DNA of 64,000 nucleotides from Candidatus Daviesbacteria bacterium (GCA_030699125.1 JAUYKM010000012.1:11159-75158), one strand, 5' to 3'; shown: positions 37,430-63,650, counted from the stretch's first letter. A program made the numbers and translations. Notes: a model not told the origin generated them from the letters alone.

Positions 37430-38578
37430 ATGCTTCTTTATGAATTTGAAGGGAAAGAACTTTTTAAAAAAAGTGGAATAAATATTCCAGAAAGTCAGTT
37501 AATTAGTGGATCAGGTAATCAGTTAATTAGTATTAAAGCACCATTAATATTAAAAGCTCAGGTTTTATCTGGGAAAAGAGCAGATAGTGGTGGAATAGTA
37601 AAAGTCACAGAGATTAAAGATTTAAGATTTAAGATTAAAGAATTATTTGAGAAAACAGTAAACGGTGAGAGGGTAGAGAAAATTCTTATAGAAGAGATGG
37701 TGGAGGTAGATAAGGAATATTATCTTTCCTTTTCTTATTCAACAGAAACCAGGGGACCTGTGATGACATTTGGTGAAGGGGGTACAGGGGCTGAGGGGAA
37801 AGGGGCTAAAACAATTTCAGTTGATCCAATAAAAGGTTTTAATGGGGAGGGTTTACCTTCTGAGTTAGTCGAAGAAGGCAAAAAGTTGTGGCAACTTTTT
37901 ATAAAATATGACTGTGAATTGGCAGAAATTAACCCATTAGTTATAGACAAAAACGGCAAAATTTGGGCTTTGGATAGTAAAATAATTTTGGATGATGATG
38001 CAGATTTCAGAAGAGAAGAAAAGTTTCCGGAAAGAAATTTGTTTGGTAGAGCTTCGACTGAAAGGGAAATTGAGGCCAGAAAAATAGATGAAGGGGATCA
38101 CAAGGGTACAGCAGGTTCTGTTTATTGGGATCTTGGGGGAGATATAGCAGTAATTGCAGCAGGTGGGGGTGGTTCCATAGTCAATATGGATGCACTGATA
38201 GCTTATGGAGGTAAACCTGCCAATTATACAGAACATTCAGGAAATCCTCCTCGTGAGAAACTGAAAAAACTGACTAAGATTGTCCTCTCCAAACCTGGTT
38301 TAAAAGGATGCTGGTTTGTAGGGGGAACTGCCAATTTTACAGATATTTATGAAACCTTAATGGGATTTGTGGAAGGATTAAGGGAAATCAGCCCGAAACC
38401 TACATACCCAATTGTGATCAGGCGTGGGGGACCAAATGATAAAAAAGCTTTTGGAGAGCTAAAGGTAATTGGCAAAAAAGAAGGTTTTGATTTTCATATA
38501 TATGGCAGGGAAACACCTATGACCTCAACTGCAAAGATAATGGTTGATTTAGCCTATGGGAAACAATTGTCATCCTGA
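37430..38578 (+). CDS. Succinyl-CoA synthetase beta-subunit-like ATP-grasp protein (SucC or CcsA-like).
   Basis: 382 aa. ATP-grasp N-domain and CoA-ligase C-domain. Its stop codon lies inside a palindromic repeat element. Confidence 0.8.
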   Translation: MLLYEFEGKELFKKSGINIPESQLISGSGNQLISIKAPLILKAQVLSGKRADSGGIVKVTEIKDLRFKIKELFEKTVNGERVEKILIEEMVEVDKEYYLSFSYSTETRGPVMTFGEGGTGAEGKGAKTISVDPIKGFNGEGLPSELVEEGKKLWQLFIKYDCELAEINPLVIDKNGKIWALDSKIILDDDADFRREEKFPERNLFGRASTEREIEARKIDEGDHKGTAGSVYWDLGGDIAVIAAGGGGSIVNMDALIAYGGKPANYTEHSGNPPREKLKKLTKIVLSKPGLKGCWFVGGTANFTDIYETLMGFVEGLREISPKPTYPIVIRRGGPNDKKAFGELKVIGKKEGFDFHIYGRETPMTSTAKIMVDLAYGKQLSS

Positions 38579-38654
38579 GTGGAACGAAGGATCTCTAGAC
38601 TTGTTCTAGGTTCCTAGGATAAACCTAGAGATTCTTCACTACGTTCAGAATGAC
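38569..38654. repeat. Palindromic miniature element (termini GTCATCCTGA...TCAGAATGAC) with an internal 13-bp stem GAAGGATCTCTAG/CTAGAGATTCTTC.
   Basis: Variant of the GTCATyCC...GGrATGAC family seen 5 more times downstream. Supplies the last codons and the TGA stop of the sucC-like gene. Confidence 0.5.
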
Positions 38655-38668
38655 AGAAAAGAAAAAAA

Positions 38669-39559
38669 ATGGCTATTTTAGTAAACGAAAAAACTAAAGT
38701 TTTAATACAAGGAATTACTGGCAAAGAAGGCTCAAAAGTGGCTTTGCAGATGCAAAATTATCAAACCAAAGTTTTAGCAGGAGTTACACCCGGCAAAGGT
38801 GGGCAGGAAGTGCATGGCATTCCTATATATAATACTGTGTCTGAGGCGCTAGAAAATCATCCAGGGATTAATACCTCATTTGTAGCTGTGCCTAACTTTG
38901 CGGCATATGAGGCAATTAAAGAGGCTGTAGAGGTCCGAATTCCCCTGATTAATATCTTAACTGAACATATACCAATACAAGATAGCGCCAAAGCTATTAC
39001 CCTAGCCAGGGAGGCTGGAGTAAGGATTGTCGGCCCATCATCTATTGGGATTATTTCCCCGGGAATAGGAAAAGTAGGATCGATAGGTGGAGATGACCCA
39101 AGAGGAGTTTTTAGAAAAGGAAATGTGGGGGTAATTTCCAAATCTGGGGGAATGGCCTCAGAAGTGTCATGGATACTGACTAAGAATGGAATAGGGCAAT
39201 CAACTGTGGTGGGTATAGGAGGTGATGTGTTAGTAGGTAGTAGTTTTGCAGATTTAATGGAGGATTTTGAAAAAGATCCTCAAACTGAGGCTGTAGTATT
39301 GTTTGGAGAGATTGGGGGGACATATGAGGAAGAAGCTGCAGAGCTTATTAAATCTGGTGGTTTCACAAAGAAAGCGGTGGCATTTGTATCAGGTTTATTT
39401 GCAGAAACTTTGCCTTCTGGCACAAAGTTAGGTCATGCAGGAGCAATTGTTTATGGGGAAAAGGGAAGTTATAAATCAAAAGTAAATGCCCTGGAATCTG
39501 CCGGCATCAAAATTGCCAAAACCCCAGATGAAATTCCGGAGTTTTTAAAAAATACTTGA
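38669..39559 (+). CDS. Succinyl-CoA synthetase alpha-subunit-like (SucD or CcsB-like).
   Basis: 296 aa. CoA-binding Rossmann domain and phosphohistidine-loop region. Confidence 0.85.
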   Translation: MAILVNEKTKVLIQGITGKEGSKVALQMQNYQTKVLAGVTPGKGGQEVHGIPIYNTVSEALENHPGINTSFVAVPNFAAYEAIKEAVEVRIPLINILTEHIPIQDSAKAITLAREAGVRIVGPSSIGIISPGIGKVGSIGGDDPRGVFRKGNVGVISKSGGMASEVSWILTKNGIGQSTVVGIGGDVLVGSSFADLMEDFEKDPQTEAVVLFGEIGGTYEEEAAELIKSGGFTKKAVAFVSGLFAETLPSGTKLGHAGAIVYGEKGSYKSKVNALESAGIKIAKTPDEIPEFLKNT

Positions 39560-39563
39560 CTTT

Positions 39564-39585
39564 TGTAATACAAATGTAATACAAT
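39564..39585. promoter_or_regulatory. Paired TGTAATACA boxes (putative BrnTA operator/promoter) immediately 5' of the brnT ATG.
   Basis: ttttgtaatacaaatgtaatacaatATG. Related boxes precede the other two cassettes at 42096-42116 and 43663-43688. Confidence 0.4.
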
Positions 39586-39876
39586 ATGACTAGGATTAAG
39601 ATAAAGAAATTGGTCTGGGATGAGTGGAATATTGAGCATATAAAGAAGCACAATGTGATACAGAGTGAGGTTGAAGAAATATCTAAAAATATTATAATCC
39701 ATAAAAAGGTTAAATTAGGGAGATATTCAATATTTGGTAGAGTTAGTTCAAGAATTCTAACTGTAATTATTAATAGAAAAGCAAGCGGTATTTATTATCC
39801 GGTAACTGCAAGAGATGCAGCTAAAAAAGAAAGGAGAAAGCTATATGAAAAAGAAAAAAGGATTAAAATTTCCTAA
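39586..39876 (+). CDS. BrnT-family toxin (DUF497 ribonuclease toxin).
   Basis: LVWDEWNIEHIKKHNV...EEI pattern. Paralogue of the 42117 ORF. Confidence 0.7.
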   Translation: MTRIKIKKLVWDEWNIEHIKKHNVIQSEVEEISKNIIIHKKVKLGRYSIFGRVSSRILTVIINRKASGIYYPVTARDAAKKERRKLYEKEKRIKIS

Positions 39877-40126
39877 TTTTAATAAAATGACCTATGAAGA
39901 AGAAACAAATTGGTGGGATACCCATGATTTGGGAGATTATTGGGATGAGATGGAAGATGTGGAGATCATTTTTGATTTAGAAAAACTTAAGGAGGAAACA
40001 TTAATCTTGCGTCTTCAAAAAGAAACAAAAGAGGAACTTGAGAAAGAAGCCAGGAAAAAAGGAATAAATGTTTCCTCGCTGGCAAGACTCTGGCTTACCC
40101 AAAGGCTTCATACAGGAGTTAAATGA
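39845..40126 (+). CDS. BrnA-family antitoxin.
   Basis: YEEETNWWDTHDL...INVSSLARLWL. The track starts it at 39815. Overlaps brnT. Confidence 0.65.
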   Translation: MKKKKGLKFPNFNKMTYEEETNWWDTHDLGDYWDEMEDVEIIFDLEKLKEETLILRLQKETKEELEKEARKKGINVSSLARLWLTQRLHTGVK

Positions 40127-40181
40127 AAATTGCCAAAACCCCAGATGAGATTCCAGAATTACTTAGGTAACAAGTACAGAA

Positions 40182-40568
40182 GTGACGAGTAACAAGTTAG
40201 AAAACAATTCATTGTTTGGGTACAAAAAGCTAATAGCATGGCAAAAAGCGAATGAATTGGCACATAAAGTGTATGATTTAACACTGGCTTTTCCGAGAAG
40301 TGAATTATTTGGTATTACTTCTCAACTACAAAGAGCAGTTTTATCAGTTCCATTAAACATAGTGGAGGGGCATGCAAGAAACAACAAGAAAGAGTTCCAT
40401 AGATTTCTGGCTATTTCTTTAGGATCATTAGCTGAAACAGAATATTTATTGGAGTTTGCTTATGAGAGAAAATATATAAAAGAGGAGACATTTAAGGAAA
40501 TCTGCTTGCTAAGATCTGAAGTAGGACATATAATTTGGAGGTTATATATTTCGCAGAAAGGAGGGTAA
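40182..40568 (+). CDS. Four-helix-bundle protein (23S rRNA intervening-sequence protein family).
   Basis: LIAWQKANELAHKVYDLTLAFPRSELFGITSQLQRAVLSVPLNIVEG signature. GTG start. Flanked by GTAACAAGT repeats. Confidence 0.75.
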   Translation: MTSNKLENNSLFGYKKLIAWQKANELAHKVYDLTLAFPRSELFGITSQLQRAVLSVPLNIVEGHARNNKKEFHRFLAISLGSLAETEYLLEFAYERKYIKEETFKEICLLRSEVGHIIWRLYISQKGG

Positions 40569-40641
40569 CTAGTAACAAGTGACAACTAACAAGTTAAAAT
40601 ACAAATAGCTTGTGCCTTGTTACCGTTACTGTACTTGTTAC
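40567..40641. repeat. GTAAC(A/T)AGT repeat array plus the conserved 33-nt leader CTTGTGCCTTGTTACCGTTACTGTACTTGTTAC directly 5' of the 40647 ATG.
   Basis: Near-identical to 26961-27032. A further array lies at 40166-40200, upstream of the four-helix-bundle gene. Confidence 0.5.
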
Positions 40642-40646
40642 AAGTC

Positions 40647-41399
40647 ATGAATGATAAGAAATGGAAGACAAGTATTGCTGGGATAGTTGATGGAGAGGTT
40701 ATTATACATGGGTATAAAGTAACAGATTTAATAGATAAAGTTAATTTTACAGAAGCAATCTGGCTTGAACTTAAAGGGGAATTGCCAACAGAAAAAGAGC
40801 GAGCCATGCTGGATGCAATATTGATTTCCACAATTGACAATGGGTTAGGTCCTCCATCTATGACTAATGCCAGAAATAGCGCCTCAGCTGGTAATCCCAT
40901 GCAGGCAGCTGTAGCTGCAGGAATTTTAGGTGTGGGAGATTTTCATGGAGGAGCAATTGAGGGCTGTGCCAAGCTCTTACAGATGGGCTTAACAGCTGAC
41001 AAACTGGTGGAAAAAGTTATTTCCTCAGGAGACAGAATAGCCGGTTTTGGCCACAAAGTTTATGAAGTAGATCCCAGAGCAACTCAAATATTTGCCAAAA
41101 GTAGAGAATTAGGCTTTTTTGGTGAACACTGCAATCTGGCCACAGAGGTGGAAAGAGTTTTGGAAGAGAAAAAGGGTAAAAAGATCCCCATTAATGTGGA
41201 CGGAGCAATAGCAGCAGTAATATCTGATATGGGATTTGACTATCGTTTAGGTAAAGGTTTTTTTCTAATAGGTAGGGTAGTGGGTCTGGTGGCCCATATC
41301 TTTGAAGAAATGGTGCGCGAGAAGCCTTACAGAAGAATTTCCTCTGAAGAAATTGAATATGACGGTGAACCTGTCAGAAAACTTGACAAAGCTAAATAA
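40647..41399 (+). CDS. Short citrate-synthase-family protein (citryl-CoA lyase-like, ~250 aa).
   Basis: GFGHKVY...DPRA citrate-synthase catalytic motifs, but only C-terminal-domain length. The track starts it at 40617. Confidence 0.7.
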   Translation: MNDKKWKTSIAGIVDGEVIIHGYKVTDLIDKVNFTEAIWLELKGELPTEKERAMLDAILISTIDNGLGPPSMTNARNSASAGNPMQAAVAAGILGVGDFHGGAIEGCAKLLQMGLTADKLVEKVISSGDRIAGFGHKVYEVDPRATQIFAKSRELGFFGEHCNLATEVERVLEEKKGKKIPINVDGAIAAVISDMGFDYRLGKGFFLIGRVVGLVAHIFEEMVREKPYRRISSEEIEYDGEPVRKLDKAK

Positions 41400-41462
41400 C
41401 TTATAGTAAAATTTATATATTGACAAGCATTCTTACAATATGCTTACAATTGAAGTATCAAT

Positions 41463-41488
41463 ATCCCATTTGGGATTTTTGTTTTTTT
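41463..41488 (+). terminator. Rho-independent terminator (ATCCCA-TT-TGGGAT plus a T-run).
   Basis: Read directly downstream of the 40647 gene. Confidence 0.65.
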
Positions 41489-41552
41489 AAAAACATATGC
41501 AAAGCTTAAGATTTTTTAATTTTTGGAAAATGTACGCTCTCTATATTGGAGG

Positions 41553-41625
41553 GAGCGGCTCAGTGGGCTTAAGTCCCAAGGATAAGGACTAAAAGACCCC
41601 AGCCGCCCCGCAAAACGGGCGGTTT
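41553..41625 (+). ncRNA. Candidate cis-regulatory leader (riboswitch/attenuator-like): structured 5' region ending in a terminator hairpin abutting the SD.
   Basis: GGGAGCGGCU can pair with AGCCGCCCC as an antiterminator. This competes with the terminator CCGCCC-CGCAAAAC-GGGCGG-U6, followed by GGAGG-N7-ATG. Confidence 0.35.
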
Positions 41626-41640
41626 TTTAATGGAGGAAAT

Positions 41641-42015
41641 ATGGAAAGAGTAGAAAGAGAAAGAACTTTATCTCATAAAGAACATATTGTAGTGATAGAT
41701 AACGAGACAGACCAGACCATCTTGGCTAATGTTGAAGGTATTAAAGGACATATTCAAGAAGAGGAGTCGGGGGATATAGTCTTTGTGAAAAGTCTGGATG
41801 GTAGATCCTTTGAATTCAGTACTTTGATAAAACTCGGTCGCGGTAAGTTTACCAGTAGAGATAACAGGTATGTATTTTACAGAGCTTGTTTATTAGATCC
41901 AAAAGATCCGCAAGATCAGGAAATTATTTTAAGAGCTATAAAAACTTTCCCGCAATCCCTTAATGGTAATGGAAGCCATACCAATTCAGATCAGAATGGT
42001 CACCTTATGTCCTAG
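41641..42015 (+). CDS. Hypothetical protein, 124 aa.
   Basis: ORF with a strong SD GGAGG. Confidence 0.5.
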   Translation: MERVERERTLSHKEHIVVIDNETDQTILANVEGIKGHIQEEESGDIVFVKSLDGRSFEFSTLIKLGRGKFTSRDNRYVFYRACLLDPKDPQDQEIILRAIKTFPQSLNGNGSHTNSDQNGHLMS

Positions 42016-42116
42016 TCTAACCTCTTAATTCAAATTGTGGTATATTTTAACCATGCAAAAGAGAATTTTAACCGGGGATAGGCCAACTTGATTTTTGTAT
42101 AACAGTGTAATACAAT

Positions 42117-42401
42117 ATGACCAGAATAGTTGTTAAAGAATTGGTTTGGGATAAAGTAAATTTGGAGCATATTAAAAAACACAATGTTACAAAAGAAGAA
42201 GCTGAAGAGGCAAAAAACTTTATCTTGCATTGGAAGACTCATACAAAAAGATATCTGGTTGTCAGTAGGGTCGGTTCCAGATTAATATCGATGGTATTAA
42301 ATAGAAAAAGTACTGGAATATATTATTTAGTTACAGCTAGAGATAGCGGTAAAAATGAAAGAAGGAGGGTACATGATAAAGAAAAAAAGCAGAATTCCTA
42401 A
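42117..42401 (+). CDS. BrnT-family toxin (second copy).
   Basis: MTRIVVKELVWDKVNLEHIKKHNV is paralogous to the 39586 ORF. Confidence 0.7.
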   Translation: MTRIVVKELVWDKVNLEHIKKHNVTKEEAEEAKNFILHWKTHTKRYLVVSRVGSRLISMVLNRKSTGIYYLVTARDSGKNERRRVHDKEKKQNS

Positions 42402-42657
42402 ATTTAAGACTTACGAAGAAGAAGCCAACTTTTGGGATACGCATGAATTCACAGAATTTGAAGATGAGCTAGAGGATGTTGAGATAGTTTTTGAGTTGAA
42501 CAAACCCAGAGATGAAACTGTGGTTCTCCGAGTACAAAGAGAAATTAAGGAGCAACTGGATAAATTAGCCAGAAGCCGCGGCCTAAATTTATCTACTCTG
42601 GTGAGAATGTGGATGATGGAAAAGCTACAGGAAAATTTAAAGAGACCAAAATTATGA
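42373..42657 (+). CDS. BrnA-family antitoxin (second copy).
   Basis: YEEEANFWDTHEF...LNLSTLVRMWMM. Its stop TGA overlaps the trpS ATG (ATGA). Confidence 0.65.
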   Translation: MIKKKSRIPKFKTYEEEANFWDTHEFTEFEDELEDVEIVFELNKPRDETVVLRVQREIKEQLDKLARSRGLNLSTLVRMWMMEKLQENLKRPKL

Positions 42658-43658
42658 AACGAATTTTGACAGGAGATAGGCCGACGGGAAAGCTACATTT
42701 AGGGCACTATATAGGTAGCCTTCGCAACCGCGTGCGTTTGCAGGAGAAGTACGAGTGTTTTTTTATTATTGCTGATTTGCATACTTTAACTACCAAGCCT
42801 GAAAAAACAGCAGATCTTAAAGAAAATATTTACCAGATGGTGTTGGATTATTTATCAGTGGGAATTGATCCGCAAAAAGCCACTATTTATATTCAATCCC
42901 AAATTCCGGAAGTAGCAGAGTTGGCTATTATTTTTGGAAATCTGGTTTCCACTCCCAGACTAGAACGGGTACCAACTCTTAAAGATGTCATGAAAGATGC
43001 TCACATCACCATTCCTTCCTATGGATTACTAGGTTATCCTGTGCTTCAGGCTGCTGATATTTTGATGGTAAGAGCTAATTTGGTGCCTGTAGGGAAAGAT
43101 CAGGTATCCCATATTGAAGTAACCAGAGAAATCGCTAGGGATTTTAATAGATTATATGGTGAAAGATTACCTGTGCCAGAGGTTCTAGTGCCGCAAGATT
43201 TAGGTACTTTGCCCGGAACAGATGGATCAGGAAAGATGAGTAAGTCTGCTGGAAACGTTATTAACTTGACTGATTCCCCGGAGGAAGTGGAGAAAAAGGT
43301 GATGAGTATGTATACAGATCCTAATAGGATTCACGCAACAGATCCTGGAAAAGTAGAGGGGAATCCGGTTTTTATATATTTAAATGCTTTTTGTACAGAA
43401 GGTGACAAGGTACAAGTAACAAGTTATGAAAATCAATATAGACAGGGCCAAGTTGGTGATATTGAGGTAAAAAAGTTTCTGGCCAAAATACTCAATAATT
43501 TTTTAGATCCCATTAGAAAAAGAAGAGCTGAATTTGAAAAACAACCAGAATTAATAGAAAAAATCTTAAAAGAGGGAACTGAGAAAGCTAGAAAAGAAGC
43601 ACAAGAAACTTTAAAAGCAGTGAAAAAGGCAATGGAATTAGATTATTTTAGTGATTGA
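42654..43658 (+). CDS. trpS: Tryptophanyl-tRNA synthetase.
   Basis: HIGH-class motif TGDRPTGKLHLGHY and KMSKS (GKMSKSAGN). The track ORF begins at an upstream GTG at 42609; the ATG at 42654 is more likely. Confidence 0.9.
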   Translation: MKRILTGDRPTGKLHLGHYIGSLRNRVRLQEKYECFFIIADLHTLTTKPEKTADLKENIYQMVLDYLSVGIDPQKATIYIQSQIPEVAELAIIFGNLVSTPRLERVPTLKDVMKDAHITIPSYGLLGYPVLQAADILMVRANLVPVGKDQVSHIEVTREIARDFNRLYGERLPVPEVLVPQDLGTLPGTDGSGKMSKSAGNVINLTDSPEEVEKKVMSMYTDPNRIHATDPGKVEGNPVFIYLNAFCTEGDKVQVTSYENQYRQGQVGDIEVKKFLAKILNNFLDPIRKRRAEFEKQPELIEKILKEGTEKARKEAQETLKAVKKAMELDYFSD

Positions 43659-43688
43659 AATTTGTTTAACAATGTTATACAATGATTT

Positions 43689-44033
43689 ATGAATACCACT
43701 AAAAGAAAGAAAAGCAGAATTCCCAGATTTAAAAGTTATGAAGAAGAGGCAACCTGGTGGGATACTCATGATACCACAGAGTTTGAGGATGAATTTAAGC
43801 CAGTCAAGCTTGAATTTGCAAAACCCCTGGAGCATATTTTAGGAGTGAGAATGGATGGTAAAACTCTGACTCAGCTTACTGAACTAGGTAGCGAAATGGG
43901 CATAGGTCCATCAACTTTAGTCAGAATGTGGATTATGGAAAAGTTAAAATCAATACCCAAGAGATCTAAGCAATCTGAAATTTCATCTCAGGCAACACTA
44001 CATCAAATTAAAAAGCCCCAAAAACATTACTAG
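43689..44033 (+). CDS. BrnA-family antitoxin homologue with no adjacent BrnT (orphan).
   Basis: YEEEATWWDTHDT...GPSTLVRMWIM. Preceded by TGTTTAACA / TGTTATACA boxes. Confidence 0.6.
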   Translation: MNTTKRKKSRIPRFKSYEEEATWWDTHDTTEFEDEFKPVKLEFAKPLEHILGVRMDGKTLTQLTELGSEMGIGPSTLVRMWIMEKLKSIPKRSKQSEISSQATLHQIKKPQKHY

Positions 44034-44042
44034 AAGTTAAAT

Positions 44043-44168
44043 ATGAAATCACAGAGAGTCACTATTTATTTACCCTATGAGCTGGCCCAGGAATTTAAAC
44101 GAATAATTCCCAAAGGGAAACGTAGCCAGTTTATAGCTGAAGCCCTTAGAGAAAAACTCTACAAATGA
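44043..44168 (+). CDS. Small ribbon-helix-helix (CopG/ParD-like) protein, 41 aa. Missed by the ORF track.
   Basis: MKSQRVTIYLPYELAQEFKRIIPKGKRSQFIAEALREKLYK translated by hand. RHH pattern V.IYLP.EL...RS.FI.EAL. Confidence 0.4.
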   Translation: MKSQRVTIYLPYELAQEFKRIIPKGKRSQFIAEALREKLYK

Positions 44169-44227
44169 TTTCCTTTGATAATTTTGTTAAAGTTATTCCT
44201 GGAACAAAAATCCATTAAGCATAGTTT

Positions 44228-46099: not shown

Positions 46100-46153
46100 C
46101 ACTGAGTTTGTCGAAGTGTTGACTTTGAAGGAACCTAAGTTTAAGATCTTTTT

Positions 46154-46819
46154 ATGCGTATCATAATTCTTCCTCTGATCTTTTTCCTCTCGGCCACAAT
46201 CTTTTTAGGCAGTTGCAGCAATGTTTATGCCCAAAGCGCTACTGATATTGGTCAATCACAAATTCATCCGGCACATTCTTTATATTTTTTAAAAACAGTC
46301 AGGGAGATTTTAGAGCTTAAGTTTGCTGGAAGTGACAGAATAGCCTCTTTGAGAAGAATGGAATTTGCCACCAGAAGAATTAGAGAGGTAAAGGCTTTGG
46401 TTAATGTACAAAAAGAAGAACTGATTGCACCTACCTTAGAAAAATATGGGGCACTACTCAAGGATATTATTGGCACCACCAATATTACTGAGAAAGAGTT
46501 GTCCACCCAGTTGGGGGAGAGTATAGATAATCATTTAAATGCACTATACCTGGTTTATGGGATCATCTCTAATGCTGATGCTAAAAGATCCATCAGATTG
46601 ACAGTGCATAGGCTGGCAGATTTAAATTCTGAATTTATTGAGAGAGCTTTGGAACATGAGCAAATGATTAATGTGGTTAATTTAAGGAGAGCAAGACAAA
46701 CAATGGTTTGTGAATTCCTGCAAAGGGAGGCAAGTTCTTCTACCCTAAATCAAGTGGAGCAAGGAGTATATTTGAAAAGAGCAAGTAGTTGTTATAAAGT
46801 TTTGGAGGCTTTCAAGTAG
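46154..46819 (+). CDS. Hypothetical secreted protein.
   Basis: Signal-peptide-like N-terminus. Confidence 0.45.
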   Translation: MRIIILPLIFFLSATIFLGSCSNVYAQSATDIGQSQIHPAHSLYFLKTVREILELKFAGSDRIASLRRMEFATRRIREVKALVNVQKEELIAPTLEKYGALLKDIIGTTNITEKELSTQLGESIDNHLNALYLVYGIISNADAKRSIRLTVHRLADLNSEFIERALEHEQMINVVNLRRARQTMVCEFLQREASSSTLNQVEQGVYLKRASSCYKVLEAFK

Positions 46820-47250: not shown

Positions 47251-47255
47251 AATAC

Positions 47256-48428: not shown

Positions 48429-48485
48429 TCTATTATAGGATATTATTATACACTATTTCCCCTTGATTTGTGATAAATTAGATAT

Positions 48486-54250: not shown

Positions 54251-54293
54251 ATTAGGATATTTTATACCACATTCTTGACTTCTATACCCTATA

Positions 54294-56221: not shown

Positions 56222-56238
56222 GGTAGAATTATCATAAC

Positions 56239-57066
56239 ATGAAGATCTTAGTCACGCATATTAATCCTCATTTAGATGATATTTTTGCCATCTGGCTGCT
56301 TAAAAAATATGATCCTAAATATAGTGATTTTGAAATAGATTTTATCTCTGCATCTCATGATAAAGCCTCTGAAGAAACTGAGGATAAAGTATTTGTTGGC
56401 ACAGGAGGAGGAAAGTTTGATGAGCATAAAGAGGGACTCAAAACTTGTGCCGGCTCCTTAGTTTTTGATCATTTAAAACAAGCAGGGTTGTTGCCCAAAG
56501 ATGAGCTGGAAGTAAAAGCCTTAGAGGAGGCAGTGGAGTGGAATAAAAAAATTGATATGGGTACTATTCCAATTGAGGCTTATGATGAATTTTCCGTACC
56601 TGCTTTTATCAGAAGCAAAGATAATAAAAAGGAAAGCTCTTTAAAGGATGTAGAGTTGGGATCTAAAATTTTAGAGCGGATTATGGAAGGCTTAAAAAGA
56701 AAACAGCAATCTTTAAAGGATTGGGAGGGGAGAGTGGAGTTTGAATCTAAATTCGGCAAATCTATTGCGGTAAAATCAGATACCATTGACCGGCCGTTTT
56801 GTAAAAGAATGGCTCGCTTCGCGAAGCAAGGAGGAGATTTGTTTTTACTATTGGCCCCCAGATATCATGGAGTACAATATTTTACTCCTTCCCAGAATTT
56901 GGATCTGAGTCCCATTTATGAAAAGGTGAAGAGTATGGATTCGGAAGCTGACTGGTTCCTGCATCAGTCCCATCATATGGTTTTATGCGGTTCATCAGCT
57001 GCCCCGGATGCAAAACCCACAAAACTTACCTTTGAGCAGTTAATTGAAGTAGCAAAGTCTATTTAA
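56239..57066 (+). CDS. MYG1/UPF0160-like metal-dependent hydrolase (tentative).
   Basis: N-terminal VTHINPHLDDIFAIWLL resembles the MYG1 signature. Confidence 0.4.
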   Translation: MKILVTHINPHLDDIFAIWLLKKYDPKYSDFEIDFISASHDKASEETEDKVFVGTGGGKFDEHKEGLKTCAGSLVFDHLKQAGLLPKDELEVKALEEAVEWNKKIDMGTIPIEAYDEFSVPAFIRSKDNKKESSLKDVELGSKILERIMEGLKRKQQSLKDWEGRVEFESKFGKSIAVKSDTIDRPFCKRMARFAKQGGDLFLLLAPRYHGVQYFTPSQNLDLSPIYEKVKSMDSEADWFLHQSHHMVLCGSSAAPDAKPTKLTFEQLIEVAKSI

Positions 57067-57082
57067 GTGCTATACTGATGAT

Positions 57083-57664
57083 ATGAGTTTAGGCTTAATC
57101 CTCAATATCCTTATTAGACTTTCTATTCTTTATTTTTTAGGAGAAGTTTTACTTTTTCCGGATGATCCCAGATTTGCCGGGAAAGCTATTCCTATAAGGA
57201 ACTTTATAATTGTTATTTCTTTAAGTCTTTTATTTCCTGCTTTTTATTTTCTCAAAAATCATTTAAAAACAACTTATTTATGGATCCCCGCTTTCGCGGG
57301 GATGACATGGAAGAGGTATCCTTTTTGGCTGGATAATTTATACCTGTCCATTTTCTGGCTAGATATGGCTGGGAATTCCTTTAACTTATATGACAGTTAT
57401 TTTTATTTTGACTTAATTCCGCACTTTCATTCCACAGCTGCCTTGGCAGTAGTACTTCTAGGAGCCTTTGGCTTTTCTTTCTGGGGAGGAGTGGGCCTTG
57501 CCAACATCATCCATATGCTTTTGGAGGCTCAGGAATATTATACGGATATATTTTTGGGTACCCACAATGTCCGGGGGCTTTTTGATACTGTTAATGATTT
57601 AATGGTGGGGCTTTTGGGAACTGTGATTTATGGTCTAATCTTAATTAAATGGCGTAAGAGATGA
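57083..57664 (+). CDS. Hypothetical membrane protein containing an in-frame palindromic repeat unit.
   Basis: The ORF runs through repeat 57282-57306, which encodes WIPAFAGMTW. Confidence 0.45.
   Translation: MSLGLILNILIRLSILYFLGEVLLFPDDPRFAGKAIPIRNFIIVISLSLLFPAFYFLKNHLKTTYLWIPAFAGMTWKRYPFWLDNLYLSIFWLDMAGNSFNLYDSYFYFDLIPHFHSTAALAVVLLGAFGFSFWGGVGLANIIHMLLEAQEYYTDIFLGTHNVRGLFDTVNDLMVGLLGTVIYGLILIKWRKR
57282..57306. repeat. Solo hairpin unit GGATCCCCGC-TTTC-GCGGGGATGAC of the palindromic element family, inside a coding sequence.
   Basis: Read directly. Confidence 0.5.
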
Positions 57665-57677
57665 TATGGTTCCAATT

Positions 57678-57748
57678 GTCATCCCTGCGGAGGCAGGGAT
57701 CCATTTAATAAAGATGGTTAATTAGATTCCCGCATATGCGGGAATGAC
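57678..57748. repeat. Palindromic miniature element (intergenic): GTCATCCCTGC-GGAG-GCAGGGATCC ... GATTCCCGC-ATAT-GCGGGAATGAC.
   Basis: Two opposed hairpin units forming a ~70-bp imperfect palindrome. Confidence 0.6.
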
Positions 57749-57759
57749 AGGAAAAAGCG

Positions 57760-58806
57760 ATGTGGAGAAGTAAATATCTAGTTTTATTTCTATTACTGAT
57801 TATTCTCGCTGGTGTGATCTTCCAAAAACAGCTCTCTACTCATCTTAAAATCATCCTTTTTATTACAGAAGAGTTTCCTCAGATTCCTGTTAAACCATTA
57901 GGGCTTATCACTCAATCTCCGCAACATGAGTGGGTGGAATTTGATCCGCCAGCTGGCGGAGGTAAGGTGGTGGCAGATCTTTATATCCCCCATGCCGCAT
58001 ATGTAAAGGATAGATCAGCTGTTATTTTGGCTATGGGGGTGAAGACCGATGAAAAAAACAAGACATTAATCCGGCATTTTGCAGATACTATGGCCAGATT
58101 AGGGTATGTAGTACTTTGGCCCAGGCTGGAAGTTTTGGATAAAGGACAATCTTTACCTGAGGAGCCAGCCACTTTTGTAGAAGGCTTTAAATACTTGCAA
58201 AACTTATGTTATTTTGACCTGTCATCCCTGCGAATGCAGGGATCCAATAAACAAGACTCTAGTTCGAAATTGGATTCCCGCCTACGCGGGAATGACAATT
58301 GTGAAGTTGACACAATAAGAATATCCTTTGTGGGTTTCTCTGCTGGTTCATCAATTGCTTTTGTGGCCTCATCAAATCCTGAAATCTCTGATAAAGTGCA
58401 TGCTTTGGTCTTTTTTGGCGGATATTTTAATATTTTTGATTATCTCGCGGCTTTAGATGGAGAAACTCCCTGGATCCCACACCCGGATGCTGTAAGTCAT
58501 GCCAAAACTTTACTGGTAGCCAAGGGAGTATCTTCTTCCTCAGCCCAACTAAACCAATATTCTCCCCAAGAATTTGTGTCTAATTTTAAGGCCAGATTAT
58601 TTATCCTGCATGATAAATCCGATACTTTTGTGCCGTATTTAGAATCTGAAAAATTATCTCAGGCTTTACCAAAAGAGAGCATTGGAGCATATGCGATTAC
58701 TGATCTTTTTGAACATGTCCAGCCAAATAGAGCATTAACAAGGGAAAATATCCAGGAACTTTTTAAATTATATAATTTTCTTTACAAAACCTTGATCTTT
58801 ATCTAA
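57760..58806 (+). CDS. Alpha/beta-hydrolase-like protein (GFSAGS elbow) with an in-frame palindromic element.
   Basis: The ORF reads through 58221-58296, which encodes ...SSLRMQGSNKQDSSSKLDSRLRGNDN... Confidence 0.5.
   Translation: MWRSKYLVLFLLLIILAGVIFQKQLSTHLKIILFITEEFPQIPVKPLGLITQSPQHEWVEFDPPAGGGKVVADLYIPHAAYVKDRSAVILAMGVKTDEKNKTLIRHFADTMARLGYVVLWPRLEVLDKGQSLPEEPATFVEGFKYLQNLCYFDLSSLRMQGSNKQDSSSKLDSRLRGNDNCEVDTIRISFVGFSAGSSIAFVASSNPEISDKVHALVFFGGYFNIFDYLAALDGETPWIPHPDAVSHAKTLLVAKGVSSSSAQLNQYSPQEFVSNFKARLFILHDKSDTFVPYLESEKLSQALPKESIGAYAITDLFEHVQPNRALTRENIQELFKLYNFLYKTLIFI
58221..58296. repeat. Palindromic miniature element inside a coding sequence.
   Basis: GTCATCCCTGC-GAAT-GCAGGGATCCAAT...ATTGGATTCCCGC-CTAC-GCGGGAATGAC. 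Confidence 0.6.
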
Positions 58807-58817
58807 TATAGAAACCG

Positions 58818-59420
58818 GTGAATAAGTTTATCGCTAATATAATTTTCTTTTCTTTATTTTTGGCTTTTTGGCATACTCCTGGATATGCCATAGAGAATCA
58901 GTCCGATCGGGTAATTGTGAAATTTAGATCTCATATTGCGCAATCAGAAAGGGCGACTCTTTTAAAAAGTTTTGGGTTGTCAAAATCTGAGCAGTTAAAA
59001 CTGGCTGATACTTTAGTCTTGCAGGTTCCAAAAAATAAAGCAGATGATTTGGCAGCCAAATTCTCAAAAAATCCTCTAATAGAATATGCGGAAAAAGATA
59101 ACCTGGCTTATGCTTTGGATTTTCCCAATGATCCCCTATATCCCAGTCAATGGGGCTTGAGTAAAATTGAAGCAGAGGGAGGGTGGAGCACTACTCATGG
59201 ATCAAACAGTGTGAGAATTGCCATTACCGATACTGGAATTGACGGTACTCATCCTGATTTGGCAGGGAAAATTGTGGCCTCTGTTGATTGTACCAACTCT
59301 TGTGTGTCAGTTAATCCCACTGATGGTGATGGTCATGGTACTCATGTGGCCGGCATTGCCTCTGCCACAACCAATAATGACCTGGGGGTGGCAGGAGTAG
59401 GCTATGACCACACTTCTTAA
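58818..59420 (+). pseudogene. S8 subtilisin fragment (propeptide + Asp/His regions only), truncated.
   Basis: ITDTGIDGTHPDL (Asp) and GHGTHVAGIA (His) are present. No Ser-motif region exists. The reading frame is overtaken by the 59404 gene. Confidence 0.55.
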
Positions 59421-60309
59421 CAAACTACAAACGCATTTAAAGTTGCAAACTAATTTAAAAACTGATACAAAATACCTGATGGTAAAGCCAACTAAAATTA
59501 CAATTTTTGAAGGAAGAAAAATACGTAGACATTGGGATGGAAAAAAAGAAAAGTGGTATTTTTCAGTTGTAGATATCGTTCAGATATTATCTAATCAAGT
59601 TGATTTCACTAAAGCTCGTAAGTATTGGAATAAGTTAGCAGAAAGACTTAGAACGGAAGGGAGTGAAGCGGTGACAAAATGTCACCAGTTGAGAATGCTG
59701 GCAGCAGACGGCAAAATGCGCTTAACTGATGTTGCAGATACAGAAACTATGTTTCGGATTATCCAAGCCATCCCTTCCCCTAATGCTGAACCATTAAAAC
59801 TCTGGCTTGCCAGAGTGGGTTTCGAACGGGTTGAAGAATTAGAAGATCCGGAGAAAGCTATTCAACGGGCATTGAGATTTTACCTTAAACGAGGTTATTC
59901 TCAAAATTGGGTAAATCAAAGATTAAAAAGTATTGAGATTAGAAAAGAGTTAACTGATGAATGGGAAGAAAGGGGAGTTGAAGAAAGCAACCAATTTGCA
60001 ACCCTCACTGATGAAATTACTTTTGCCTGGGCGGGAATGAGAACCAAAGATTATAAAAAATATAAAAACCTTAAAAAAGAAAACCTGCGGGATAATATGA
60101 CTAATCTAGAACTTGTTTTAAATATGCTTGCAGAAGTTTCAACAACAGAAATCTCTAAAAAAGTAGAGCCAAAGGATTTCGAAGAGAATAAAAAAGTAGC
60201 GAAAGAGGGAGGATCAATTGCAGGCTTGGCAAAAAGAAGATTAGAATCTAAACTTAAGAAAAAAGTGGTAACAAAATTAAACGCCAAAAACTTGGGACTT
60301 TTGGAATGA
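59404..60309 (+). CDS. Bro-N/DinD-like domain protein (phage antirepressor-like).
   Basis: KITIFEGRKIRRHWDGKKEKWYFSVVDIVQIL resembles a Bro-N domain. Lys-rich C-terminus. Confidence 0.5.
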   Translation: MTTLLNKLQTHLKLQTNLKTDTKYLMVKPTKITIFEGRKIRRHWDGKKEKWYFSVVDIVQILSNQVDFTKARKYWNKLAERLRTEGSEAVTKCHQLRMLAADGKMRLTDVADTETMFRIIQAIPSPNAEPLKLWLARVGFERVEELEDPEKAIQRALRFYLKRGYSQNWVNQRLKSIEIRKELTDEWEERGVEESNQFATLTDEITFAWAGMRTKDYKKYKNLKKENLRDNMTNLELVLNMLAEVSTTEISKKVEPKDFEENKKVAKEGGSIAGLAKRRLESKLKKKVVTKLNAKNLGLLE

Positions 60310-60420
60310 AAAAAACAAATGAGCATTTAAAAGATCCAAGAAAACGTTTTTCCTCTGGAATGAGCCATAAGTAGCTAATTTCTTTCAAAATGCAACTACT
60401 TCCTGTGATATAATACAAAT

Positions 60421-60666
60421 ATGAAAAAGTATATTACTTCCAAACCTGATGTGATGGGTGGTGCACCTTGTATTCTTGGAACCAGAATACCTGTTGATGT
60501 TATTTTATATCGCCTCAAAGAAGGGTATACTCTAAAAGACCTTCATAAAATGTATCCTTGGGTTGAGCTAAAAAAATTTGAGGGAGCACTTGAGGAGCTA
60601 GCAAGTAAAGTTAACACTCTTAAAGATGACCAAGAGGTTTTACAAACACAAACTACTGCTGGATGA
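60421..60666 (+). CDS. DUF433-family small protein (antitoxin-like).
   Basis: GGAPCILGTRIPVDVILYRLKEGYTLKDL...YP pattern. Promoter -10 TATAAT at ~60407. Confidence 0.6.
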   Translation: MKKYITSKPDVMGGAPCILGTRIPVDVILYRLKEGYTLKDLHKMYPWVELKKFEGALEELASKVNTLKDDQEVLQTQTTAG

Positions 60667-60815
60667 GAATTTTCCAGTCCGTTCATACTTCCCTAACCTA
60701 AATAAAAGGCATGATGTCAAACATCTGACTAAAGATTCTCAAAATCTAGCTAATAAAGCCTTCTGGGATAATCCATAGATCTTCTCATTGACAAGGCTCT
60801 ATTTTTTCCTCTAAC

Positions 60816-61736
60816 ATGATATTAATGCCCACTTCAACTACGTTCAGTGCAGGTCAAAGAGGAATTATTCATATCCCCATTATCATAGTATTTTTACTGG
60901 CTCTCGGTTTGATGGTGGTAGGTAATGTCCAGACTACCACTGAGTATGATCCAGGTGATGTTCAAGGATTAATTGCCAAAGGCGGAGAAAACAGCGGCAA
61001 AGGATCTGAAAATAGAGGAGGTCCTCCTGAGGAAGTTAGAATTAAGCAAGAAATTAGAACAGCTGATCAGGAGATTAAGAGGGAAATTAGAGAGGATAGA
61101 GTAAGAGTAGATGTTTCTCAAAGCAATGCCAAAAGTAAAATTCACAGACAAAATAATGAAATTATCATTCAAACTGAAGTAGAGAGTGAAATTGAAGATG
61201 AGGCAACTGAATCAGCTGATGATGATGATGATGAAGATGAAGATGAAGATGAAGAGACTGAGGTAGTAGCAGAGCTTCGGGCCATTTCCAAGTTTCCTTT
61301 AAGGATTGATACCTCCACCAATCAACTAATCATGACCAAAAATGGAGTAGAGAGAGTATTAACTATCTTGCCTGCTCATGCTGTGCAAAATATGTTGAGA
61401 GCCCACCTTAAAAAGGGTTTAGGTCCCAAGTTTTTTGAAGGTGCCACGCCTTCTGCCACGCCAGAGGGTAGCCCTTCAGCTTCACCCTCCGCCTCACCAA
61501 CTGAGGAGCCTGAGGCAACTGAGTCAGCAGAGTTGACTATTCTGGAAAGTGATATCAGTTTGGAAGAGCTAGATAGCCAGATAGTCTATAAAATCCCAGC
61601 TAAAAAACACTTAAAAGTATTAGGATTTATTCCAATTAATACAGATTTAACAGGCTATGTCTCAGCAGAAACCGGAATACTTTTGGAGGAGAGACAGTCA
61701 TTTTGGGCCAGACTATTAGATTTATTATCCCCCTAA
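60816..61736 (+). CDS. Hypothetical secreted protein with a poly-acidic (DDDDDEDEDEDEE) region.
   Basis: TM/signal at the N-terminus. The C-terminus is paralogous to the 35368 protein. Confidence 0.5.
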   Translation: MILMPTSTTFSAGQRGIIHIPIIIVFLLALGLMVVGNVQTTTEYDPGDVQGLIAKGGENSGKGSENRGGPPEEVRIKQEIRTADQEIKREIREDRVRVDVSQSNAKSKIHRQNNEIIIQTEVESEIEDEATESADDDDDEDEDEDEETEVVAELRAISKFPLRIDTSTNQLIMTKNGVERVLTILPAHAVQNMLRAHLKKGLGPKFFEGATPSATPEGSPSASPSASPTEEPEATESAELTILESDISLEELDSQIVYKIPAKKHLKVLGFIPINTDLTGYVSAETGILLEERQSFWARLLDLLSP

Positions 61737-61745
61737 ATTAGTGTT

Positions 61746-61850
61746 GTCATTCCCGCCCGCTTCGCCGAAGCTCCAGCGAGGCGAGCGTATGCGGGAATCC
61801 AATTCCGACCAAGAGGTTATTAATTGGATCCCTGCATTCGCAGGGATGAC
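61746..61850. repeat. Palindromic miniature element (intergenic, long-loop variant).
   Basis: GTCATTCCCGC-(40-nt loop)-GCGGGAATCCAAT...ATTGGATCCCTGC-ATTC-GCAGGGATGAC. Confidence 0.6.
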
Positions 61851-61859
61851 GAAGAAGTT

Positions 61860-62240
61860 TTAAACATTAATAGATTTTCCACCTTCTGAAGTGGCCAACC
61901 CAAGAGCAAAGTAATCTACATCTTCCTGACCTAAGTTTTCAAAAGTGTGTACCTGGCCTTCTTTGGCAATCACCATATCCCCTTTTTCCAAAATAGCTTC
62001 CTCATTATCTATTTTGGCCTTAACACGGCCATTCATCATGATAAATACCTCAATCATAGACTCATGATAGTGCGGTTCAAATTTTTTACCCACGGGGATG
62101 CGGGCCCAATTAATCATCTGAATCTTTCCATAAGGTAAATCACCTGTTTTAAGAAGAACTTTTTTTAAAGCTCCCGGATTTTTAGGATCCTCATGTGAGG
62201 CTGGAATAAAATCCAACTCCTTGAAGCGGACTATTTTCAT
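61860..62240 (-). CDS. Cupin-domain protein.
   Basis: Cupin_2-like G(x)5HxH..E / G..P...H pattern (HYHESMIEV...GQVHTFEN). Confidence 0.6.
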   Translation of the reverse strand: MKIVRFKELDFIPASHEDPKNPGALKKVLLKTGDLPYGKIQMINWARIPVGKKFEPHYHESMIEVFIMMNGRVKAKIDNEEAILEKGDMVIAKEGQVHTFENLGQEDVDYFALGLATSEGGKSINV

Positions 62241-62258
62241 GAGTTATAATTATAACCT

Positions 62259-62453
62259 ATGTGTTACAACTGTGGATGCGGGATGCCGGATGATGATATG
62301 GGGCAAGGCAATGCCGGAGTAGATCCGCATGGTAAATCTATTACCAATAAAACCTTTAAAGCTGCGGCCGAGTCCCAGGGCATGGCTGAGGAAGATGCCA
62401 AAAAATTCACTTTGGAGATGCTACAAAAAGAACTGGGGCAAAAAAAGGAATAA
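62259..62453 (+). CDS. Small Cys-rich protein (CYNCGCGMPDD), 64 aa.
   Basis: ORF only. Confidence 0.3.
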   Translation: MCYNCGCGMPDDDMGQGNAGVDPHGKSITNKTFKAAAESQGMAEEDAKKFTLEMLQKELGQKKE

Positions 62454-62471
62454 TTCTGCTAGAATTAGGGC

Positions 62472-63650
62472 ATGAGAGTAGCTTTGGTCCATGATTTTTT
62501 GGTGGAATACGGAGGCGGGGAAAGGGTGTTGGAGGCTTTAGCCGAGATTTTCCCTGATGCTTCTATCTATACTGCCTATTTTAACCCTGATGGATTTGGT
62601 CCGCACAAAGATAGGATCAAATCATGGAATATTAAAACCTCATGGTTGCAGTTTTTTCCCAGGAAATTAATCTCTCCATTTAGGATTTTTGCCGCCCAAA
62701 TCTTTGAAAATTTTGATCTGTCAGCATATGATTTGGTAATTTCCTCTTGTAATACTTATTTTGCTAAAGCTGTTAAGGTGAGGAATGGGGCTTTGCATAT
62801 CAGCTATATCCATACACCACCCCGCTATTTATATGGATATACCACTTCTTTTAATTATAAAAAAAATCCGCTCACCAGAGTGTTGGGGGAGCTGGCTAAC
62901 CATTTTTTACGAATTAAAGATTTTGAGGTTTCTCAGAGGCCGGATATTTTAGTGGCCAACTCTAAAGAAGTTCAGGCAAGAATTAAGAAGTTTTACAGAA
63001 GAGATAGTGTGGTCATTTATCCACCGGTTGATCTTATGTCATTCCCGCGAACCAAGGCAGACTTGGGAATGCGGGAATCCAATAAAAAGAATATTTATGG
63101 ATCCCGGATCAAGTCCGGGATGACAGAAGGTAAATATTTTCTTTCTGTGGGGAGGTTGGTAAGAGGAAAAGGGATAGATATTATAATTGAGGCTTGTGTA
63201 AGATTAGGATTACCACTTAAAGTGGTAGGGAGTGGACCGGAAAGGGAGAATTTAGAATCTAGAATTAAGAATCAAGGTTATAAAAACATAGAGTTTTTGG
63301 GGCAGGTTTCCGATCGTGAGTTGCCTAAATTATATGCGGGAGCTAAAGCTACTATTGTAGCATCAGAAGATGAGGATTTTGGTATAACCTCAATTGAGGC
63401 CCAAGCCGCAGGGACACCGGTGATAGCTCCGGCATCTGGTGGATTTTTGGAAACTGTGATAGATGGTAAAACCGGACTTTTGTATGGAGGCCCTGGGATG
63501 GTTAATGCAGATTCTCTAATCGGGGTATTAAGGGAGTTCAGGGAGGACCAATTTAAATCAGAAGATTTGCGCAAAAATGCTGAAAAATTCTCTAAAGAGA
63601 GATTTAAAAAGGAAATATTGGAGTTAGTAGAGAAGAATTTGAGGGCTTGA
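62472..63650 (+). CDS. GT4-family glycosyltransferase carrying an in-frame palindromic element.
   Basis: EDFGITSIEAQAAGTPVIA (EX7E). The ORF reads through 63038-63124, which encodes ...SFPRTKADLGMRESNKKNIYGSRIKSGMTE... Confidence 0.75.
   Translation: MRVALVHDFLVEYGGGERVLEALAEIFPDASIYTAYFNPDGFGPHKDRIKSWNIKTSWLQFFPRKLISPFRIFAAQIFENFDLSAYDLVISSCNTYFAKAVKVRNGALHISYIHTPPRYLYGYTTSFNYKKNPLTRVLGELANHFLRIKDFEVSQRPDILVANSKEVQARIKKFYRRDSVVIYPPVDLMSFPRTKADLGMRESNKKNIYGSRIKSGMTEGKYFLSVGRLVRGKGIDIIIEACVRLGLPLKVVGSGPERENLESRIKNQGYKNIEFLGQVSDRELPKLYAGAKATIVASEDEDFGITSIEAQAAGTPVIAPASGGFLETVIDGKTGLLYGGPGMVNADSLIGVLREFREDQFKSEDLRKNAEKFSKERFKKEILELVEKNLRA
63038..63124. repeat. Palindromic miniature element inside a coding sequence.
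   Basis: GTCATTCCCGC-(22-nt loop)-GCGGGAATCCAAT...GGATCCCGGA-TCAAGT-TCCGGGATGAC. The length seen is about 87 bp. Confidence 0.6.

Follow-up and report, generated by a model that had tools for sequence, protein, structure and literature searches.

CGTC-type palindromic repeats, some in frame within protein-coding genes, in a Candidatus Daviesbacteria bacterium

A stretch of 64,000 nucleotides from a Candidatus Daviesbacteria bacterium (GCA_030699125.1 JAUYKM010000012.1:11159-75158; the whole stretch is hereafter called the window) contains six short palindromic elements, E1 to E6. We favor the interpretation that E2 to E6 are repetitive extragenic palindromes (REPs) of the CGTC-1 type, including one CGTC-2-like unit, and that they are most likely mobilised in trans by way of their folded hairpins; we put the probability of this reading at roughly 0.8. 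The six copies had originally been predicted as one family of palindromic miniature elements inserting in frame into genes. All six were found where they had been predicted, and a family with three in-frame copies and with repeats well beyond chance was borne out. What did not survive is the grouping of E1 with the other five, as it belongs to a related but different palindrome family. The ends of the copies also had to be corrected, reaching one base further on each side (T or C before GTCAT, A or G after ATGAC). The corrected elements are as follows, with z describing the stability of the single-stranded DNA fold relative to shuffles and strand given for the one element to which it applies:

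E1, 38568-38655: 88-bp imperfect palindrome of the second family, with unit GTCATCCTGAG..CGAAGGATCTC, at the junction of a sucC-like and a sucD-like gene.
E2, 57281-57307, minus strand: single CGTC-1 unit with tag TGTC, stem ATCCCCGC, loop GAAA and tail CCA; z = -4.9.
E3, 57677-57749: head-to-head dimer of unit a (ATCCCTGC/GGAG) and unit b (ATTCCCGC/ATAT); z = -5.0.
E4, 58220-58297: head-to-head dimer of a and b, in frame in open reading frame (ORF) B; z = -5.4.
E5, 61745-61851: head-to-head dimer of b, with a 34-nt extended loop, and a; z = -5.5.
E6, 63037-63125: head-to-head dimer of b, with a 22-nt nested hairpin in its loop, and c (ATCCCGGA, 5-nt loop CTTGA); z = -6.7.

The window has a G+C content of 38%, at which 0.63 occurrences of GTCATYCCNG are expected; there are 10, a number reached in none of 100 shuffles. 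The full hairpin pattern GGATYCCNG-N(3-33)-CNGGRATGAC occurs seven times against an expectation of 0.00. Every copy is far more stable as folded single-stranded DNA than its shuffles (z from -3.4 to -6.7), the usual fold being two small hairpins plus a closing GTCAT/ATGAC stem, and the dimers can alternatively be folded as one long hairpin. A match at 16412 has no hairpin and was discarded as a chance occurrence. Searched at its gathering threshold, Rfam recognised nothing in the whole window except two tRNAs.

CGTC REPs were defined by Di Nocera, De Gregorio & Rocco (2013, BMC Genomics 14:522; PMC3733652) as hairpins with a CGTC tag (often TGTC, CCTC being allowed), a stem of 8-9 bp beginning with AT and a CCA tail, the loop being 4 nt long in CGTC-1 and 5 nt in CGTC-2 to -4. 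According to the same study they occur mainly as head-to-head dimers, intragenic copies are known and no transposase is associated with them. Using a finder that required only GTCAT and a paired 8-bp stem and left the tail free, we recovered nine units in the window. The unit is a 27-nt hairpin made up of a YGTC tag, an 8-bp stem beginning with AT, a loop of 4-5 nt and a CCA tail: (i) the unpaired tag is TGTC in eight units and CGTC in the ninth; (ii) all nine stems are 8 bp long, start with AT and have a perfect partner, the stem being ATCCCCGC, ATCCCTGC in a units, ATTCCCGC in b units or ATCCCGGA in the c unit; (iii) the tail is CCA in 8/9 units and CTA in the other and (iv) the loop is 4 nt long in six units and 5 nt (CTTGA) in one. 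The two remaining loops, in the left units of E5 (34 nt) and E6 (22 nt), fold on themselves and are variants beyond the strict 4-5 nt definition. As structure and sequence both match, we regard membership in CGTC-1 and CGTC-2 as established.

Head-to-head dimers also predominate here (four, with one singleton). They measure 71-105 bp, with two units placed around a short, rapidly evolving A/T-rich core of 22-26 nt, and are heterodimers, a+b in E3, E4 and E5 and b+c in E6; brought into a common orientation, all begin and end alike, with ATTCCCGC at one extremity and an ATCCC-type unit at the opposite one. The CCAAT...ATTGG core that was originally proposed is literal in E4 and E5 only, the cores of which are recognisably related, and elsewhere it resolves into the CCA tail followed by a variable A/T-rich core. 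The elements themselves encode no protein. Translation of the consensus unit meets no stop in five of the six frames (the sole closed frame reads GGA TTC ... GAA TGA), so that survival of an insertion in frame is likely.

That three copies lie within long ORFs without breaking the frame, as is described for Rickettsia palindromic elements (RPEs), was confirmed for E2, E4 and E6. The host genes are:

Host ORF A, 57083-57664, plus strand: 193 aa, no Pfam match; carries E2.
Host ORF B, 57760-58806, plus strand: 348 aa, alpha/beta hydrolase of the BD-FAE/DLH kind; carries E4.
Host ORF C, 62472-63650, plus strand: 392 aa, family 4 glycosyltransferase (GT4); carries E6.

The hydrophobic composition of ORF A suggests a membrane protein, in which E2 encodes the peptide WIPAFAGMT. 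In the hydrolase, E4 encodes SSLRMQGS...LDSRLRGND and adds about 27-31 residues directly ahead of the GFSxGSS nucleophile motif. The peptide encoded by E6 is SFPR..RES...GSRIKSGMT; it accounts for residues 189-218 of the GT4 protein, the Pfam domains of which cover residues 13-188 and 218-372, and so fills the linker between the two Rossmann domains. An AlphaFold model of this protein (46 sequences) has a mean predicted local distance difference test (pLDDT) score of 87, with low values at residues ~190-220 (block means 70, 50 and 47) and scores below 50 at residues 207-217. Given its inter-domain position and the low pLDDT, the E6 insert would be a flexible linker, predicted to be disordered, where extra residues should be tolerated. 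As for the intergenic copies, E3 lies between ORF A and ORF B and E5 between the convergent genes 60816-61736 (+) and 61860-62240 (-).

Filled and empty sites in relatives bear on whether the elements are insertions. The nearest relative is represented by two contigs of one ENA sample (L001 and L244), the flanking genes of which are about 90-95% identical to those of the window. E2 is absent from the L244 orthologue of ORF A, which has 181 aa as against 193 aa in the window. L244 also lacks E3, its genes A and B overlapping; in the window a stop comes after the old B start codon (ATG), and the gene begins anew past the element. E4 is absent from L244 at the DNA level and, among the best 70 of 120 aligned hydrolase homologues, its insert was seen in the window protein only. 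E5 is absent from L001 and, judged by gene coordinates, from a more distant relative (L246). The convergent genes overlap by 4 nt (TTAA), and since they do so in both L001 and L246 the overlap must be ancestral and E5 a gain. At the E6 site the closest GT4 orthologue (P0002, in L001) has a different, shorter linker of 17 residues. Taken over 20 kb, the relative has no bona fide unit, where the corresponding part of the window has nine. The expectation that orthologues of the host proteins would lack the inserted peptides was thus satisfied by L244 for E2 and E4, by the hydrolase homologues and by the different linker of the GT4 orthologue, and, as read from these alignments, at least E4 and E5 are shown to have been gained in the window lineage.

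Two further differences from the relative were observed at these loci. The GT4 linker of L001 (4400-4440) contains four 7-nt repeats, TGTCAGC, TTTCAGC, CATCAGC and TATCAGA. At 58818-60309 of the window, a 200-aa ORF that has nothing of a subtilase but the pro-domain and the first ~70 residues of the S8 domain overlaps a 301-aa BRO-N ORF, whereas in L244 the hydrolase gene is followed by a 476-aa ORF instead; the window would accordingly have undergone truncation or rearrangement here.

Between its two domains, the GT4 linker has been colonised repeatedly, and by at least three repeat types. Linker types were counted by matching peptide signatures in the 120 closest orthologues, which gave 12 of the CGTC-1 type, 11 of the E1 type, 12 with a third repeat (SRQSSVVRQSESRKLKADS) and 85 with none, meaning that about 29% have some repeat-derived linker. 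The peptide of the third repeat, SRQSSVVRQSESRKLKADS, is found in P0011, P0015, P0023, P0030, P0061, P0068, P0069, P0095, P0099 and others. We also read the linker DNA of six orthologues (L245-L250). The window, L245, L247 and L250 have the same insertion site, frame and unit order, with diverged cores and some enlarged loops, and on these grounds probably descend from one old insertion. In L248 the dimer is reversed in orientation and lies in another frame, in L249 the insert is read in the third frame and in L246 the linker holds an E1-type unit. Together these sequences amount to at least four insertion events within about five codons.

Copies in frame were also found in other genes of other Daviesbacteria, namely units or dimers in an ATP-dependent DNA ligase (L247, 19530-19598; L250, 18613-18636) and a copy in DNA polymerase I (L249, 3071-3184), which echoes a remark on replication and repair genes in PMC3733652. 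The L249 polymerase is 1227 aa long with a faint LAGLIDADG match, which suggests an intein.

The loops of some units hold extra modules of 18-47 nt that recur between genomes (window 61756-61789 and 63049-63070; L249 3071-3184 and 8527-8574; L247 880-930 and 10618-10683; L250 10603-10668). The module CCGCTTCGCC..AGCT.CAGCGAGGCGAGCG is common to the window and L249, CTTGCCCGCCCTGAGCGAGGCCGAAGGGA is present twice in L249 and CTTGA..ACCGAAGGT.GCAAGGTT..TTCTTA is common to L247 and L250. In the left unit of E6 the module is bordered by repeated GAA, and the 34-nt loop in the left unit of E5 is nearly identical to a loop in the L249 polymerase insert; a scan of viral contigs for this long-loop variant gave no match. 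From their sequence the modules look like nested insertions into hairpin loops.

The original prediction asked whether the element is repeated elsewhere in the genome. It is in fact repeated far beyond this genome, in viral contigs and in contigs representing one genome per species, and the family, which is not special to this organism but found across many phyla, had been described in 2013. The single-hairpin pattern has at least 120 matches in the viral contigs and the dimer pattern at least 120 in the one-genome-per-species contigs, in hosts of 35-71% G+C. Among the matches listed, dimer hosts include Alpha-, Beta- and Gammaproteobacteria, Gemmatimonadota, Anaerolineae, Nitrospirae, Planctomycetota, Bacteroidota, Acidobacteria, Cloacimonadota, Bipolaricaulota, Parcubacteria and Falkowbacteria. 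Ninety-three extracted dimers, which came from a head-to-head search pattern and are therefore no measure of dimer predominance, have near-identical hairpins (GTCATTCCCGCGAAAGCGGGAATCC ... GGATTCCCGC..GCGGGAATGAC) around unrelated cores of 16-40 nt, with a pyrimidine before GTCAT and a purine after ATGAC. N. gonorrhoeae has this dimer directly upstream of pilE.

Some of these loci have a larger organisation. In a gammaproteobacterial metagenome-assembled genome (MAG; L138, 1314-1819) a dimer and its flanks form three tandem repeats with a period of about 209 bp, and in Candidatus Hatepunaea (L153, 15-95; L191, 4832-4912) two near-identical dimers sit inside a longer palindrome, CCCATTTT...AAAATGGG. 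From these tandems and long palindromes, the mobile or duplicated unit would exceed the dimer in some genomes. In ten loci below 47% G+C (L153, L166, L183, L191, L194, L195, L201, L216, L223 and L233, two of them Falkowbacteria) no dimer is located within a long ORF. A high frequency of intragenic copies may thus be specific to Daviesbacteria and not general to the Candidate Phyla Radiation (CPR), with the proviso that the Daviesbacteria loci were picked via their GT4 inserts and are biased in this respect.

As to how the elements move, in-trans mobilisation through a folded single strand is the most likely route, by analogy with GTAG REPs and with REPINs, the paired form of such REPs. An enzyme supplied in trans, of the HUH/Y1 type or another recombinase, would recognise the folded single-stranded hairpin together with its unpaired tag. 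Insertions would then survive where they are harmless, that is at gene junctions (E1, E3 and E5) or, with the frame kept, in flexible loops and linkers (E2, E4 and E6), and the surviving in-frame inserts would be translated into short peptides rich in Arg, Gly, Ser and Pro.

Several points weigh against this interpretation. We found no mobilising enzyme, either in the 64 kb of this genome or in 240 other loci bearing the hairpin. All-versus-all clustering of 8,501 ORFs from these 240 loci uncovered no transposase-like protein recurring beside the dimers, the only recurring proteins being phage structural proteins, ABC ATPases and response regulators. Neither the window, nor the 240 loci, nor the 2013 survey (PMC3733652) has a RAYT or Y1 gene flanked by these units. 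Pfam searches of about 50 window ORFs detected no Y1, IS110, rve or TnpB domain and no transposase domain. Twenty pairs of head-to-head units lie 1-2.3 kb apart, and 18 of these enclose an ordinary-looking housekeeping or phage ORF (the longest ORF, judged by eye); in the other two (L095 and L138) the ORFs are low in complexity and look spurious, in high-GC DNA. No parent insertion sequence was found for a reading of the elements as miniature inverted-repeat transposable elements. Secondly, with the window and L244 as the two genomes compared, E2 and E3 may have been lost in the relative and not gained here. Thirdly, the 5-20 nt beside each insertion have diverged, blurring the exact junctions; for E3 two alignments of filled and empty site are equally good. 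Possible duplications of 5-7 nt, TTAAA at E5, TTGAC at E4 and AATATTT at the right unit of E6, lie several bases from the ends in diverged flanks and are suggestive only as target-site duplications. Translation of the inserts, moreover, is assumed from their intact frames. Finally, E1 falls outside the stem and loop definitions of CGTC-1 to -4.

The main rival to in-trans mobilisation is a recombination-site model patterned on the Neisseria intergenic mosaic elements (NIMEs), under which the elements would spread, and shuffle their neighbours, by recombination with incoming DNA and without transposing themselves. There is precedent for this in Neisseria, where the same hairpin, dRS3, is used by Nf prophages for integration and has been proposed as a recombinase target (PMC1797815). 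Cores that are unrelated across genomes would be expected if the hairpins alone were constrained, the gene content at 58.8-60.8 kb, between elements, differs from that of the nearest relative and the DNA beside each insertion has diverged too. However, there are no NIME-like arrays here, just isolated dimers and one singleton, and no IS110/Piv-like gene was seen in the window or beside the 240 other copies. Furthermore, the flanking genes keep an identity of about 90-95% with the relative until some 20 nt from the inserts, which looks like the product of small insertions and not of exchanged segments. We accordingly consider the model improbable, on the order of a long shot.

Even less probable, in our estimation, is that the elements are kept by host selection, as terminators, mRNA stabilisers, regulators or useful peptide linkers, and do not spread selfishly. 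Most REPs are situated downstream of genes, and a role as RNA elements is assumed for many of them (PMC3733652); E1, E3 and E5 are at gene ends and some repeat-derived linker is present in about 29% of the 120 closest GT4 orthologues, as given above. Set against this, the nearest relative does without E2-E5, the E4 peptide is missing from the best 70 of the 120 hydrolase homologues, no T-run follows the hairpins and the E6 segment is predicted to be disordered. The inserts in the GT4 linker differ in frame, orientation and repeat family, so that no specific peptide is conserved. It is this variety at one site, together with absence in the closest relative, that makes a purely functional role unlikely. 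The last alternative, chance palindromes, convergent hairpins or artefacts of assembly, draws on the window coming from a MAG and on the capacity of short repeats to confuse assemblers, and is effectively refuted by the shuffles, by identical 25-nt hairpins in isolates (Dyella, Massilia, Ottowia, Povalibacter and N. gonorrhoeae) and by in-frame copies at the same GT4 site in six independent assemblies.

A separate question is whether CGTC REPs are currently active in this Daviesbacteria lineage, with a real preference for particular sites. The basis for considering activity is the four to five differences from a relative of ~90% identity within 6 kb, together with the absence of units from 20 kb of that relative; the basis for a site preference is the repeated occupation of the GT4 linker, at least four times by three repeat families, and the recurrence of copies in DNA ligase and DNA polymerase I. 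We think it rather unlikely as matters stand. If it were true, this pair of near-identical genomes would lend itself to a search for the missing enzyme that mobilises CGTC REPs and RPEs and to defining its choice of target. More generally, filled and empty sites in close relatives could help to find this enzyme.

E1 ends in GTCAT/ATGAC like E2-E6, but its unit stem has only 5 bp and its tail is CTC, which is why we place it in a different family. Its arms (43 nt) are 74% complementary and its DNA fold has z = -3.35. As predicted, E1 supplies the last codons and the stop of the sucC-like gene (TCA TCC TGA, the ORF ending at 38578). E1-type units also occur in at least 120 stretches of viral contigs. 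The gene concerned is:

sucC-like / ATP-citrate-lyase-like beta subunit gene, 37430-38578, plus strand: stop codon within E1.

It belongs to an ATP-citrate-lyase-like or citryl-CoA-synthetase-like cluster (37430-41399), not a metabolism that one would expect of a CPR bacterium. One subunit has ATP-grasp plus Citrate_bind domains, another is of the CoA-binding/ligase type, and the ORF at 40617-41399 has the C-terminal domain of a citrate synthase. Within the cluster, 40182-40568 encodes a '23S rRNA intervening sequence protein'. Elsewhere in the window, on the minus strand, a gene for tRNA-Ile (30020-30091; rare anticodon TAT) adjoins one for a tyrosine recombinase of the XerC/D type (30133-30996); this may mark a site of integration, or the recombinase may just be the chromosomal Xer. 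The region 3316-11205 holds a type I restriction-modification module (HsdM at 6023-7459, HsdS at 7428-8762 and a 905-aa ORF upstream) and a YaaC-like gene; genes with a Fic domain are found at 10117-11205 and 19054-20115.

What is new in our observations is modest: the occurrence of the family in a CPR bacterium, a phylum outside the list of the 2013 survey (Proteobacteria, Chlorobi, Bacteroidetes, Spirochaetes and Thermotogae; PMC3733652), the colonisation of the GT4 linker, the copies in DNA ligase and DNA polymerase I and the recurring extended loops. This is a well-described kind of element in a new host, and the 2013 description precedes ours. Our literature searches found no paper linking palindromic elements to CPR bacteria and no match to the element peptides. 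In practical terms, WIPAFAGMT, LDSRLRGND, SFPRKRES and VIPAKAGI in CPR proteins should be annotated as REP-derived inserts and not as conserved motifs. The puzzle posed in 2013, a 25-nt hairpin conserved across phyla without a known transposase, persists, and this locus alone does not solve it.

Compared with known systems, the elements agree with CGTC-1 and CGTC-2 REPs in their YGTC tag, 8-bp stem beginning with AT, CCA tail, head-to-head and often heterodimeric arrangement and in-frame copies, and seven of the nine units share the loop of 4 nt (CGTC-1) or 5 nt (CGTC-2). No transposase was seen beside the copies examined here, and none is associated with CGTC REPs in PMC3733652. The elements differ in their CPR host, in two units with loops of 22 and 34 nt as opposed to 4-5 nt and in TGTC being the usual tag in an AT-rich genome. 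Integron attC sites were ruled out by the wrong core sites. GTAG REPs and REPINs are likewise short, tagged and tailed, non-coding, multi-copy hairpins, in inverted pairs that form a larger hairpin, but the tag here is YGTC and identity with GTAG REPs was ruled out on that account. GTAG REPs are mobilised by RAYT transposases (Nunvar 2010; Bertels & Rainey 2011, as cited in PMC3733652). They are species-specific; the CGTC hairpin sequence, in contrast, is conserved across phyla.

Turning to Neisseria, the b units of E3, E4, E5 and E6 (ATTCCCGC-N4-GCGGGAAT) fit the 20-bp dRS3 repeat ATTCCC-N8-GGGAAT, whereas the a and c units (ATCCCTGC and ATCCCGGA; ATCCCT.. and ATCCCG..) lie outside its consensus. 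NIMEs, too, have two inverted units around a variable segment, as upstream of N. gonorrhoeae pilE. They form long intergenic arrays with more than 100 repeat sequence (RS) families and serve as prophage integration sites, and Bentley et al. (2007; PMC1797815) thought dRS3 and NIMEs to be Neisseria-specific. Our elements are instead isolated dimers and a singleton, with cores of 22-26 nt, and half are intragenic.

With RPEs, the analogy drawn in the original prediction turns out to be stronger than stated and amounts to homology, as the elements fit the CGTC-1/-2 definition and encode the same peptides. CGTC-1 has been equated with Neisseria dRS3 and with RPE-6 of R. conorii, and CGTC-4 with RPE-4 (PMC3733652). 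The R. conorii intragenic CGTC-1 peptides include SFPRKRES, SFLRKQES...LDSRFRGND, VIPAKAGI, WIPAFTGMT and DSRLRGND (PMC3733652, Additional file 3). WIPAFAGMT, LDSRLRGND and SFPR..RES in the window correspond to R. conorii WIPAFTGMT, DSRLRGND and SFPRKRES or SFLRKQES..LDSRFRGND, and the R. conorii peptides are also seen in Daviesbacteria orthologues. The identity with a named RPE is thus one of peptides, compared at that level, and the equation of RPE-6 with CGTC-1 is that of the authors of PMC3733652. No NCBIfam family, RPE or other, matches the six element peptides or the three host proteins at E <= 10. RPE-1, at about 150 bp (2024 review), is longer than the elements described here and is a type not seen among them. 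RPE-6 and RPE-4 (Ogata et al.) resemble our elements in inserting in frame into unrelated housekeeping genes and in having hosts with small genomes; Rickettsia, however, is an obligate intracellular alphaproteobacterium, and the host here belongs to the CPR and is free-living or epibiotic. In-frame copies lengthen enzymes in the small genomes of CPR bacteria too, and the selfish DNA found within Rickettsia genes can be seen as a local case of a hairpin family that is spread through a large part of the bacterial domain, to which the CPR can now be added.

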